Shown: positions 38,487-43,170 of the stretch, one piece after another | How the letters are laid out: each line of letters opens with the position of its first letter | Numbering within the stretch: the stretch's first letter is position 1 | Assembly: GCF_051903065.1 (NCBI RefSeq) | Contig: NZ_CP178438.1 | Reading direction: 5' to 3' (one strand) | Source: Escherichia coli | GTDB taxonomy: Bacteria; Pseudomonadota; Gammaproteobacteria; Enterobacterales; Enterobacteriaceae | Length of the DNA: 64,000 nucleotides | Position numbers and translations under genes: made by a program | The notes under the pieces: generated by a model | What the model saw: only the letters and a program-made list of their open reading frames with translations | The model's database searches: none | What the model was told of the DNA's origin: nothing

Positions 38487-39539
38487 ATGCCAGTGTTACA
38501 CAACCGCATTTCCAACGACGCGTTAAAAGCCAAAATGTTGGCTGAGAGCGAACCGCGAACCACCATTTCGTTTTACAAGTATTTCCACATCGCCGATCCT
38601 AAGGCGACCCGTGACGCTTTATATCAGCTGTTTACCGCGCTGAATGTTTTTGGGCGAGTGTATCTGGCGCATGAGGGCATTAACGCGCAAATCAGCGTAC
38701 CTGCGAGCAATGTTGAAACATTTCGCGCGCAGCTCTATGCCTTCGACCCGGCTTTAGATGGCTTACGCCTGAATATCGCGTTGGATGATGACGGGAAATC
38801 CTTCTGGGTACTGCGCATGAAGGTCCGCGATCGTATCGTTGCCGACGGTATTGACGATCCTCACTTTGATGCCGGCAATGTTGGTGAGTATCTGCAAGCG
38901 GCGGAAGTGAACGCCATGCTTGACGATCCCGATGCACTGTTTATCGACATGCGTAACCACTATGAGTATGAAGTGGGGCACTTTGAAAACGCGCTGGAAA
39001 TTCCGGCAGATACTTTCCGTGAGCAGCTGCCAAAAGCAGTTGAGATGATGCAGGCACATAAAGATAAAAAAATCGTCATGTACTGCACCGGCGGCATTCG
39101 TTGTGAAAAGGCCAGTGCCTGGATGAAACATAACGGATTCAATAAAGTCTGGCATATCGAGGGCGGAATTATTGAATACGCCCGTAGGGCGCGCGAGCAG
39201 GGCTTGCCGGTGCGTTTTATTGGCAAAAATTTTGTTTTTGACGAGCGGATGGGCGAACGTATATCTGATGAGATTATTGCGCATTGCCACCAGTGCGGTG
39301 CGCCGTGCGACAGCCATACCAACTGTAAAAATGATGGCTGCCACCTGCTGTTTATCCAGTGTCCAGTATGCGCGGAAAAATACAAAGGTTGTTGTAGTGA
39401 GATTTGCTGCGAAGAAAGCGCGTTACCGCCAGAAGAACAGAGACGCCGTCGGGCAGGACGTGAAAATGGCAATAAGATCTTTAATAAGTCTCGTGGACGT
39501 CTGAATACAACACTGGGCATTCCTGATCCAACAGAATAA
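38487..39539 (+). CDS. trhO: Rhodanese-domain tRNA uridine(34) hydroxylase YceA (TrhO)
   Basis: 350 aa from internal ATG ([17 protein letters not shown]...), rhodanese active-site Cys in [10 protein letters not shown], Cys-rich C terminus. Confidence 0.9.
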
Positions 39540-39580
39540 ATATCATTGCCGGATGCGTGCCATCCGGCAACATTTCACTC

Positions 39581-40156
39581 TTACTTCTGCTGTACGCCTT
39601 CCACTGAAATAATCAGATCCACTTCCTGAGAAGCTGGACCTAAATCTGTCTTGATATTGAAGTCCTTGAGCTTAATTTTGCCTTCGGCCTCGAAGCCTGC
39701 ACGTTTACCACCCCACGGGTCGTCGCCCTGACCAATTAATTTCGCTTCCAACGTGACGGGTTTGGTTACACCATTCAGCGTCAGATCGCCGGTAATATCC
39801 AGTTCGTCACCGTCTTTCTTCACGCTGGTGGAGGTGAATGTTGCCTGTGGATATTTTGCGGTATTGAGAAAATCCGCACTGCGAAGATGTTTATCGCGTT
39901 CGGCGTGGTTAGTATCGACGCTGGTGGTGTTAATTGTCACATTCACTTTATCGGCAGCTGGATTTTTTTCATCAAAGGTAAAAGTACCGTCGAAATCTTT
40001 AAAGGTGCCATATAACCAGCTATAGCCAAGATGCTGGATGCGGAAGTTAACAAAGGCGTGCTGACCTTCTTTGTCAATTTTGTAATCGGCGGCAACCGCT
40101 GAACCGGCAGAGAACATCAGGGACGCGAAGGTTAAACCAAGCAGGCTTTTTTTCAT
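39581..40156 (-). CDS. yceI: Periplasmic polyisoprenoid-binding protein YceI
   Basis: 191 aa with signal peptide. Confidence 0.93.
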
Positions 40157-40159
40157 TTT

Positions 40160-40726
40160 TTATACTCCATAGTCAGATGACGACTTTCCCAGCATGCGCT
40201 TCAGAGTGTCGTCTTTATCGATGAAATGATGCTTCAGGGCCATAAATCCGTGCATAACGGACAGCACTACGACGCTCCACGCGAGCCAAAAATGCAGGGC
40301 ACCGGCAAAGTCTGCCTGTGCGCCAGCGTCGGCAAGGGTCGCGGGGACGTCAAACCAGCCAAAAACGCTGATCGGTTTACCATCGGCAGTTGAGATCAGA
40401 TAGCCGCTGATGCCGATGGCGAACAGCAATAGGTACAATGCGAGATGTCCAGCTTTTGCGGCAAGACGAGTCATGGGCGAATAACTCGGCAGCGGACCCG
40501 GCGGTGGAGATATGACGCGCCACAGAACGCGAATAACCAGCCCCATCATTAACAAAATACCGATGCTTTTATGCAGTTCGGGTGCTTTGTGATACCAGCC
40601 ATCGTAATAACTGAGCGTGACCATCCACAGACCTAAAGCAAACATGCCGTAGACAATAATTGCGCTTAGCCAATGGAAGGCCGCAGATATAACACCATAG
40701 CGTTCAGGGGTATTTGTGAATGACAT
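40160..40726 (-). CDS. yceJ: Cytochrome b561 homolog YceJ
   Basis: 188 aa from internal ATG (MSFTNTPERYGVISAAFHW...). Confidence 0.88.
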   Translation of the reverse strand: MSFTNTPERYGVISAAFHWLSAIIVYGMFALGLWMVTLSYYDGWYHKAPELHKSIGILLMMGLVIRVLWRVISPPPGPLPSYSPMTRLAAKAGHLALYLLLFAIGISGYLISTADGKPISVFGWFDVPATLADAGAQADFAGALHFWLAWSVVVLSVMHGFMALKHHFIDKDDTLKRMLGKSSSDYGV

Positions 40727-40986
40727 AAGTGCATCCAAAACGAATTTGCGAGAGAAAGAAAATGGCGTGTCGGAGAATGAATTGCAACACAAAAATAACA
40801 AATTGAATGATATTTATTTTTATTTCAATAATTTTGAATTAATAATGAAAGAATCTTCATAAGTTTAGTGGGTTCAGCATCAGAGATGTCTGGTGAGTGC
40901 TGTAGAAGCAGGAATAATCTCATTCAATTTTTCACGCTAAATGAAAGGGAGATTAAATATTTGTCAGTTTATGTCAGTGCGGAAAA

Positions 40987-41100
40987 CTAAAAATAAAACA
41001 CATAGATCAGATCCATAATTGCCAACAATCCCCAGAGAAAAAGATAAAGCATCAGATGCTCGCGAATATTATTGATGAGATAGTGCAACAGCCGACGCAT
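40987..41100 (-). CDS. yceO: Small membrane protein YceO
   Basis: 37-codon [40 protein letters not shown] read from the minus strand; below the ORF-track size cutoff. Confidence 0.6.
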
Positions 41101-41147
41101 TAAATACTCCTGTAAAAACGGCCTCATTCTGGAGGCCGTAATGATGA

Positions 41148-42266
41148 TTATTGGAAGCGGGAAAGCCTGAATGGCGTCAAATCAAAATCGCTTTTTTTGT
41201 CTTGCGCAAAATCGGCAGCTATTTCCCCTAAAACTGACGCAAATTTAAAACCGTGCCCACTCAGGCCGGTAATGAGCAGTGTATTATCGTGGCCGGGTAG
41301 GGTATCGATAATAAAATCTTCGTCAGGCGAATTATCATAGGTGCAGGCAGCGCCGTACAGGCAGCAACCGATACCCGGCAATACATTGCGCAAGAACGGG
41401 AAGGCTTCTGACCCATCACTGGCCACTTCCGCAAACGGAACACGTTCATCCGCTGAATGGATAACCTGGCCTCCGTTATGTTTGCCAATCTTCAACGCGT
41501 CGTTTTCTGCCGGAAAACCATAATATTGATCGCCATTGGGCAGTTCACCGGTAAACGCCGGGAATTTATTCTTCACGCTATAGCGGCCATCGGCCTGATA
41601 CCAGGCAAATACTTTACGTACGGGCTGGACAGGCAGCTCCGGGAGCAGGTCTTTTACCCATGTTCCCGCGCAGACAATCGCTTTTTTCGCCTGATACTCA
41701 CCGTCAGCCGTTTCAATAGTTACGCCATCATCGTCATGACGAATTGCGGTGACCGGGCAGTTGAACAGTTGCGCACAGCCCGCTTCCTTCGCCAGTTGGA
41801 TCCAGGTTTTAATCGCCAGTTCGCTGCGCAAAAAACCGGAATCAGTCTCAAATAAGCCGATGTAATTGTCCGGGACGCGTATTTCTGGCCAGCGGGCCAT
41901 AATCCCTTGCGCATCGAGCTTTTCAACGTTGAGTTGCCACTGTTCGGCGCTGTGGGCGACGTTAGCGAGAAAAGCGGAGTCAGCCGGGCCAAGGTTAATG
42001 ACACCAGAGCGTACAAAAATGGGATCATCTTCGTTGTGGCGGGAGAGGTCATCCCACAGCGTTTGTGCGCGGAGGACCAGCGGGACATACTTTTCGCCTT
42101 CACCATAAGCATGGCGAATTAATCGCGTATCGCCGTGGTGGCTGCCGTGTTGATGTGGTGGCATATGGGCGTCGGTCATAAGCACGTTTAAACCGGCGCG
42201 GGTTGCATAATACCCGGCGGCAGCGCCTACGGAACCGCTGCCAATAATGATGAGATCGTATTTCAT
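41148..42266 (-). CDS. solA: N-methyl-L-tryptophan oxidase SolA (FAD)
   Basis: 372 aa, [24 protein letters not shown]-binding fold. Confidence 0.93.
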
Positions 42267-42380
42267 TTTTTTCTCTCTGCTCTCATGGTTTAAGCAGAGT
42301 AATTAACTGAATGCAGATATACAACCCAGAAATGGTAAAGGCACCGGTGAGGTGCCTTTTGGGTGGATGGTCATGTCATG

Positions 42381-42635
42381 TTAATGACGCCGATACTCGT
42401 TTACCGGGAAATCACCGGATTCAATTTTGGCGATTCCTGCTTCTAATATCGAAATAAATTGTCTGGCAACATCAGTGGTTAACCAGAGCGTCTGACCAAC
42501 TTCAGTCCCTTCCTGCTCGGACTTATTTGGGGTCTGGTAGTGCAAACGCAACATCAGCGCATCATAGCTATCAACGGTGCTGATGTCCCACCCTACGAGC
42601 GGATGAGTCTGAATGACTTCATTATTTTTTTCCAT
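42381..42635 (-). CDS. bssS: Biofilm regulator BssS (YceP)
   Basis: 84 aa from second ATG (MEKNNEVIQTHPLVGWDI...). Confidence 0.9.
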   Translation of the reverse strand: MEKNNEVIQTHPLVGWDISTVDSYDALMLRLHYQTPNKSEQEGTEVGQTLWLTTDVARQFISILEAGIAKIESGDFPVNEYRRH

Positions 42636-42881
42636 CATGGCCCCCTAATTCGTGTTACTAGACAACGTTATTCGAGGTTCAATGCGTTTTTATCTGAAGC
42701 AACTTCAGTATACCAATAAGTAAGGGTATTCACCGAATTTTTAAAGGGGGAAACAGATAAATTTCTGCTTTTAAGATTTATATGAACAATAAAACAGCAT
42801 GTCATTCATATTTTTTTAGCATATTGTGCAATTATTTTGAGGAAGTGTAGAAATTTTGTACTCAAAATTCGTAAGTAAAAT

Positions 42882-42905
42882 AAAAAAGCCGGGGCGACCC
42901 GGCAA
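42882..42905 (-). terminator. Hairpin terminator downstream of dinI
   Basis: GCCGGGGCGACCCGGC flanked by A/T runs on both sides. Confidence 0.5.
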
Positions 42906-42924
42906 AAACAAAAATCACTGCATA

Positions 42925-43170
42925 TTATTCGCTGACAAACCAGTCATCGGCGCTTTCCCACGTTTCCTGGAGAATTTCGCTAATGCGCTGTTTATCTTCT
43001 TTTGTCGCGCCAATAACCGATAAATTATTCGCTGCGGCATAACGTACCGATACGTGGCCTTCATTATCAGGAAACGCATACTGAATACGGCGGGAAAGTT
43101 CGCCAGCCAGGGCGTCAATAGCCCCAGCTGGCAATGGAGAAGTTTTCGCTATGGTGACTTCAATTCGCAT
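42925..43170 (-). CDS. dinI: DNA damage-inducible protein DinI
   Basis: 81 aa from internal ATG (MRIEVTIAKTSPLPAGAIDALAGELSRRIQ...). Confidence 0.93.
   Translation of the reverse strand: MRIEVTIAKTSPLPAGAIDALAGELSRRIQYAFPDNEGHVSVRYAAANNLSVIGATKEDKQRISEILQETWESADDWFVSE

Follow-up and report, generated by a model that had tools for sequence, protein, structure and literature searches.

The small open reading frame between solA and yceJ in Escherichia coli is yceO, a known small-protein gene under purifying selection

We find that the small minus-strand open reading frame (ORF) between yceJ and solA in a 64,000-nucleotide stretch of Escherichia coli DNA (the window, to which positions refer unless stated otherwise) is the E. 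coli gene yceO (b1058), which is already known and annotated. The best overall explanation, to which we assign a probability of about 0.9, is that this ORF is a genuinely translated small-protein gene restricted to the Enterobacteriaceae. Because the K-12 reference annotation, Pfam and the small-protein literature all include yceO already, the finding, though correct, is an ordinary one and matters little as a discovery. What is added here is a quantitative proof of purifying selection on yceO, a description of a conserved hairpin between solA and yceO and of the yceJ control region, and an argument for viewing the 46-aa reference start as a probable artefact of the solA terminator.

Identity and neighborhood of the ORF

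The gap in which the ORF lies (40727..41147, 421 bp) is the whole interval from the start of yceJ (40726) to the stop codon of solA, and the features in and around it are:

40160..40726, minus strand: yceJ, cytochrome b561 family (Pfam Ni_hydr_CYTB)
40987..41100, minus strand: yceO coding sequence, conserved form, 37 codons plus TAG stop (PGAP CDS, Pfam DUF2770, 52 orthologues, AlphaFold2)
41148..42266, minus strand: solA, FAD-dependent oxidase, N-methyl-L-tryptophan oxidase (Pfam DAO)
41148..41150, minus strand: solA stop codon, the right-hand border of the gap
40716..40862, plus strand: other gap ORF
40729..40806, plus strand: other gap ORF
40825..40923, minus strand: other gap ORF
40868..40990, plus strand: other gap ORF
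40941..41018, plus strand: other gap ORF

In the ORF listing, the minus-strand frame read from its first ATG spans 40987..41127 and encodes 46 aa, while an internal ATG at 41100 gives 37 aa. The same listing holds five further ORFs of 25-48 codons inside these 421 bp, so the presence of a 37-codon ORF is by itself not above chance.

We searched complete E. coli genomes with a 701-bp query around the gap and obtained matches in 5424 of 5426, the features under the match being solA, a 'YceO family protein' and yceJ. Comparison with MG1655 (NC_000913.3) revealed 23 differences across the surrounding 2.5 kb and none within 40517..41616; the gap is thus base-for-base identical to K-12, and the source strain is one other than MG1655. 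Further, the nucleotide sequence of the ORF is that of the published yceO sORF, and the product scores 79.1 bits against a cutoff of 25 (E = 2.4e-22) with Pfam PF10968 (DUF2770), positions 1-36 of the 36-position profile aligning to residues 10-45 of the 46-aa form. NCBIfam release 20 has no model that matches either the 37-aa or the 46-aa form, so the PGAP name 'YceO family protein' must rest on other evidence; this does not speak against membership in the family. An Rfam scan of 39000..43000 (E ≤ 1) found no family. PGAP annotation of a K-12 derivative gives a YceO CDS of 37 codons, corresponding to 40987..41100, whereas the curated MG1655 record places yceO/b1058 at 1119307-1119447 with 46 codons. 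The YceO (PF10968) of E. coli K-12 is therefore the same gene with the same DNA and the same neighbors (solA upstream, yceJ-yceI downstream) and differs in the start call only, 46 aa there against 37 aa by PGAP and by comparison.

A sequence-only reading of this DNA had described a 37-aa hydrophobic peptide encoded on the minus strand of the gap and had named it YceO. Both statements are borne out: the peptide lies at 40987..41100 and its residues 16-37 are hydrophobic, and the name agrees with the MG1655 identity, the RefSeq product 'YceO family protein' and the PF10968 score. Its count of 37 codons agrees with PGAP and the comparative evidence but not with the 46-codon K-12 record, and its remark that about 260 bp upstream of yceJ are AT-rich is correct (GC 0.32). 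The claim that the gap is otherwise free of ORFs holds for long ORFs and fails for short ones, given the five others listed above.

Conservation and selection

Loci were fetched from species-representative Enterobacteriaceae genomes via the neighboring SolA protein, which yielded 56 loci; SolA was chosen as the anchor over YceO, and the sample is therefore not selected for presence of the ORF. A yceO-like ORF directly downstream of solA, on the same strand and 40-120 nt off, was found in 52 of the 56. These loci come from Escherichia, Citrobacter, Salmonella, Kluyvera, Kosakonia, Leclercia and Yokenella as well as Pseudocitrobacter, Pluralibacter, Siccibacter, Pseudescherichia, Intestinirhabdus and Enterobacter-like species, and the ORF is mostly 37 codons long, with 38-39 codons in a few of the 52.

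Pairwise dN/dS of yceO against the window ranges from 0.07 to 0.28, with a mean of 0.156 for pairs of moderate divergence, and the entropy at codon positions 1, 2 and 3 is 0.73, 0.29 and 1.27, respectively. The yceO frame is open in 52/52 orthologous loci with a pN/pS of 0.28, while the other five frames at the same place are open in 0-16 of the 52 (closed in 36-52) with a pN/pS of 0.47-2.25. Four residues (N11, R13, H15 and D30) are invariant among the 52 orthologues, a further seven (R3, N10, E14, Y19, W23, L26 and A27) reach a conservation of 90% or more, and the orthologues carry an NN(I/V)REH motif together with a membrane-embedded Asp. yceO is under purifying selection at the codon level. 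Conservation of this kind was the check that the sequence-only reading had proposed, and the dN/dS of ~0.1-0.16 with a strong third-position bias supports its view of the ORF as a gene.

It could be argued that the ORF is merely a chance frame in an AT-rich spacer, in which only the solA terminator and the yceJ promoter signals are functional. Such a reading would be in keeping with the five other short ORFs in the gap, with the loss or breakage of yceO in a few lineages and with an extremely low protein level: chromosomal YceO has been reported at a level at least 10,000-fold below that from pBAD at 0.002% arabinose (2025 Molecular & Cellular Proteomics paper). However, the protein is detected in vivo, as the same paper describes chromosomally SPA-tagged YceO on immunoblots and YceO found by top-down MS. 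Against chance, too, stand a frame open in every one of the 52 orthologous loci, its fixed length, the low dN/dS and the four invariant residues, whereas the other frames are closed and lack such a bias. What sets yceO apart from the other ORFs of the gap is thus conservation and not ORF size, and the chance-frame reading, to which we give next to no credence, is already refuted by the comparative data. The other gap ORFs, considered as genes in turn, were rejected as chance ORFs not conserved across loci; the 32-codon minus-strand ORF loses its start (ATG to ATA) already in close Escherichia relatives.

The YceO family is a narrow one. Our HMMER search of 1.84 billion representative proteins returned 38 clusters only, all of them either close relatives of 37-38 aa or read-through and frameshift artefacts, and this whole-library search revealed neither a distant family nor a connection to any protein of known function.

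Among the 56 solA-anchored loci, yceO is also broken or missing in places. In Salmonella enterica subsp. arizonae (locus L027, 5160..5270) codon 23 has changed from Trp to a premature stop and the gene is a lineage-specific pseudogene; yceO is intact in Salmonella subsp. diarizonae (L028). It is absent from Enterobacter sp. BIGb0383 (L034, 5113..5445), where the solA hairpin and the TGACA repeats described below are kept and the 37 codons between them are gone, and from Shimwellia pseudoproteus (L050), where the convergent trhO directly follows solA. yceO is therefore dispensable in some lineages.

Two side observations concern the sequence collections. Many of the rare E. coli YceO protein clusters (P0091, P0097, P0098, P0024 and P0036) are frameshifted, extended or indel variants, for instance with ...SFPH extensions or an LY duplication, and these may stem from sequencing errors in the T-rich 3' end or reflect real relaxed constraint in some strains. 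We also observed a 492-bp low-coverage contig (NZ_JAHZMO010000143.1, L056) in an assembly of the Firmicute Terrisporobacter petrolearius that is 99% identical to E. coli solA, which is almost certainly contamination of that assembly.

Start codon of yceO

The two annotated forms of YceO differ by nine codons at the N-terminus, and the features that bear on the choice between them are:

41101..41127, minus strand: nine-codon N-terminal extension MRPFLQEYL of the K-12 46-aa form (MG1655 annotation)
41107..41111, minus strand: AGGAG as Shine-Dalgarno sequence, with 6 nt between it and the ATG at 41100 (read from the sequence)

The comparative evidence favors the shorter form. Homologues outside Escherichia and part of Citrobacter start at the position of Met10 (with ATG, or GTG in a few), many genera have an in-frame stop 1-5 codons upstream of this conserved start, and purine-rich GGAG, AGGA or GAGA motifs stand in other genera at the place of the AGGAG. 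The nine-codon extension shows no conservation outside Escherichia and some Citrobacter. From these patterns, translation of yceO very probably starts at the ATG at 41100, behind the AGGAG, giving 37 aa, and the extension is probably not translated.

The competing possibility is that the real product is the 46-aa K-12 form, started at the ATG at 41127 (MRPFLQEYL...). This form is that of the K-12 reference annotation and of UniProt-style usage, and E. coli, E. albertii and a third Escherichia species retain the upstream ATG. TTG or GTG takes its place in the remaining Escherichia and part of Citrobacter, with the frame open to the downstream Met, and several species have NTG codons at the hairpin position. 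An 11-residue peptide was moreover detectable from the plasmid-expressed 46-aa ORF in a Storz-lab MS study, which worked with the 46-aa form. However, that peptide came only from the plasmid construct, which carries a vector ribosome-binding site, and was not seen in wild-type cells. The upstream ATG, at the junction of the loop and the 3' arm of an 8-bp GC hairpin, follows CCUCC, which is not a Shine-Dalgarno sequence; in most genera the in-frame stop intervenes before the conserved Met; and both the PF10968 profile and PGAP begin at residue 10 (Met10) of the 46-aa form. We consider the longer product unlikely.

Read in frame, the 3' arm of the solA terminator, its T-run and the ribosome-binding site of yceO yield the extension. 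Since 'RPFL' is GAGGCC GTTTTT in translation, it looks conserved wherever the same hairpin sequence occurs. If the 37-aa form is the product, MS peptides, deletions or tags designed on the 46-aa N-terminus could target something that is absent from wild-type cells.

A conserved hairpin between solA and yceO

The short interval between the solA stop and the yceO start contains a potential transcription terminator:

41118..41139, minus strand: stem-loop ACGGCCUC-CAGAAU-GAGGCCGU, putative solA intrinsic terminator (MFE fold, 8-bp stem)
41112..41117, minus strand: UUUUAC following the stem-loop

In 53/53 loci, a GC-rich hairpin with a folding energy of -9.9 to -22 kcal/mol stands between the end of solA and the start codon of yceO. 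In a coarser scan the observed mean energy was -13.1 kcal/mol, against -4.2 kcal/mol for mononucleotide shuffles of the same 60-nt stretches. The stems vary by genus yet stay complementary, as in GGCCUC/GAGGCC, GGCCCC/GGGGCC, GGCUCCGG/CCGGAGCC, GGCCCGC/GCGGGCC and GGCACAU/AUGUGCC. The hairpin ends 17 nt upstream of the yceO start in E. coli and 9-30 nt upstream across genera.

The element shares with intrinsic terminators a GC-rich stem of 6-8 bp and a 6-nt loop, and further an upstream A-run in Citrobacter and stems that covary between genera; the stem is followed by a U-run of variable length, and in Escherichia and Citrobacter the hairpin has A-run and U-run flanks like those of an intrinsic terminator. 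It differs from them in its short U-run (4-5), which is nearly absent in Kluyvera, and in having a ribosome-binding site and a gene within 17 nt. The E. coli U-run, GUUUUUAC, counts five U if the last stem pair is opened and four otherwise; most Citrobacter have 4-7 U after the hairpin and most Kluyvera 1-2. The hairpin is kept in every genus, even where the U-run has decayed. A consensus promoter and terminator scan of 40500..41400 called no terminator at the solA hairpin, we think because one U pairs into the maximal stem and leaves four. The supplementary text of a 3'-end mapping study contains no entry at the solA-yceO hairpin. A table of that study lists the minus-strand position MG1655 1120419 (window ~42099) as 'internal' to solA.

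The scan of 40500..41400 was uninformative: it found a single plus-strand promoter-like match, fewer than in shuffles, and no minus-strand promoter-like site between solA and yceO. Given that it found no such site there and that the distance from the hairpin to the ATG is only 17 nt, yceO may be transcribed mainly by read-through of a leaky solA terminator, a proposal that we hold with even odds and that would fit the very low reported level of YceO. A stronger version, which we regard as speculative and rather doubtful, is that yceO is made only by read-through of the solA terminator, with the hairpin as a conserved gate, and, separately, that the 260-bp yceJ control region, of constant length and with its TGACA-N5-TGACA repeat, holds a regulator site not yet described. 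If this were true, the hairpin would set the amount of YceO per solA transcript, and YceO would be tied to solA rather than to the downstream yceJ-yceI.

The yceO-yceJ spacer

The interval downstream of yceO contains a series of conserved elements:

40727..40986, minus strand: AT-rich intergenic region from the yceO stop to the yceJ start, 260 bp, GC 0.32
40962..40977, minus strand: direct repeat CTGACAtaaaCTGACA (TGACA-N5-TGACA, 10-bp period) just after the yceO stop
40922..40927, minus strand: TTGAAT block
40824..40838, minus strand: TTCAA-N5-TTGAA block
40806..40815, minus strand: AAATATCATT block
40785..40800, minus strand: TGTTA-N6-TGTTG direct repeat, overlapping the -35-like hexamer
40759..40788, minus strand: GTTGCAA-N14-CGCCATTTT, candidate yceJ promoter

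The spacer measures 258-263 nt in most of 40 species, with a GC content of 0.27-0.38, and in its alignment conserved blocks alternate with unconserved sequence. These blocks are kept across genera whose synonymous sites are saturated. The pattern suggests that the spacer is a tightly organized control region of yceJ-yceI, an organization of which we found no description in the literature.

The TGACA repeat is kept in nearly all species with yceJ downstream and occurs in three copies in Enterobacter sp. BIGb0383. Since this strain lacks yceO, the repeat belongs to the control region of yceJ. It looks like a candidate response-regulator site or a distal TTGACA -35 element; of the known consensus sequences compared with it by eye, none fits. 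Sites for PhoB, CpxR, Fur, FNR, IHF and sigma-54 were likewise considered for the spacer blocks, by eye and against their consensus sequences, and rejected for wrong spacing or a poor match.

Closer to yceJ, the GTTGCAA-N14-CGCCATTTT element recurs in most of ~30 loci, with the same two motifs 14 nt apart and at a distance of 33 nt from the yceJ ATG. The sigma-32 consensus consists of a -35 CTTGAAA and a -10 CCCCATNT at a spacing of 13-15 nt. By eye, the element resembles this consensus, and it is a candidate sigma-32-like promoter for yceJ, offered as a lead. The TGTTA-N6-TGTTG repeat that overlaps it resembles an ArcA box. This pattern has one match in the 64-kb window against 0.28 expected, a count reached in 27/100 shuffles, and with 0.28 expected by chance it is not significant alone; it is conserved across genera. 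yceJ has been described as induced by heat shock and Cpx, and yceJ-yceI as repressed 6- to 8.6-fold anaerobically. As a lead, an ArcA-like and a sigma-32-like element would fit both the anaerobic repression and the heat-shock and Cpx induction of yceJ-yceI.

Structure and likely role of YceO

AlphaFold2, run with a 30-sequence alignment, predicts YceO to be one continuous helix (residues 2-36, mean pLDDT 94.5). Residues 1-15 are polar (charge +3/-1, hydropathy -0.63), while residues 16-37, which contain the invariant Asp30 and end the protein, carry a charge of 0/-1 and have a mean Kyte-Doolittle value of 2.05. Under the positive-inside rule a positively charged flank is cytoplasmic. The polar, net-positive N-terminal third would accordingly lie at the cytoplasmic face of the inner membrane, and residues 16-37 would form a single transmembrane segment with the C-terminus at the periplasmic face. 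On this model YceO is most likely a single-pass inner-membrane protein with its N-terminus inside and its C-terminus in the periplasm.

At such a size, YceO cannot be an enzyme. Several small membrane proteins, such as AcrZ, CydX, MgtS and MgrB, act by binding larger membrane proteins, the targets being AcrB for AcrZ, cytochrome bd for CydX and MgtA for MgtS. YceO is like AcrZ, CydX and MgtS in its 30-50 aa, one transmembrane helix and low abundance, although the likeness is architectural only and involves no homology. MgrB is a single-pass membrane protein, as is YceO, but MgrB has PhoQ as its partner and no partner is known for YceO. By analogy with these proteins, we hypothesize that YceO acts on a larger protein of the inner membrane by binding and modulating it, contact probably being made through the NNIREH face and D30. 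Its size, topology and invariant N11, R13, H15 and D30 make an inner-membrane modulator an about evenly balanced prospect, and these four residues, together with the lineages that have lost the gene, offer handles for mutagenesis and comparative work.

One specific partner can be weighed with the present data. YceO could be a dedicated accessory subunit of YceJ, a cytochrome b561 homologue, much as CydX is of cytochrome bd. Both YceO and YceJ are membrane proteins, and in ~40 species yceJ-yceI directly follow yceO on the same strand. However, yceO follows solA in Kluyvera, Yokenella, Pseudocitrobacter and Pluralibacter without yceJ-yceI downstream, Enterobacter sp. BIGb0383 has yceJ without yceO, and the two genes are kept apart by the 260-bp control region, which has promoter-like elements of its own. 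In Kluyvera (L053, 5155..5277) and Yokenella (L039, 5152..5283) yceO runs with its stop codon up to, or into, the 3' end of the convergent trhO (yceA). Given that yceO in these two genera does without a downstream yceJ-yceI, the gene travels with solA and not with yceJ. The persistence of yceO where yceJ-yceI is not adjacent led us to down-weight the subunit reading, which we now judge very unlikely.

YceO is termed uncharacterized in the literature. Two papers, as secondary sources, name yceO an acid-stress small protein, with an acid-shock phenotype given through citations, and it is grouped as such with MgrB, YobF and YqgB, which are likewise < 50 aa and have no sequence similarity to YceO. 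Modulation of a larger membrane protein by YceO would feed into the acid-stress role that these sources give. An acid-stress Ribo-seq study counted yceO among 'previously known sORFs' and reported no significant change for it under mild or severe acid stress, so that YceO is unresponsive to acid in Ribo-seq even though it is grouped with MgrB, YobF and YqgB.
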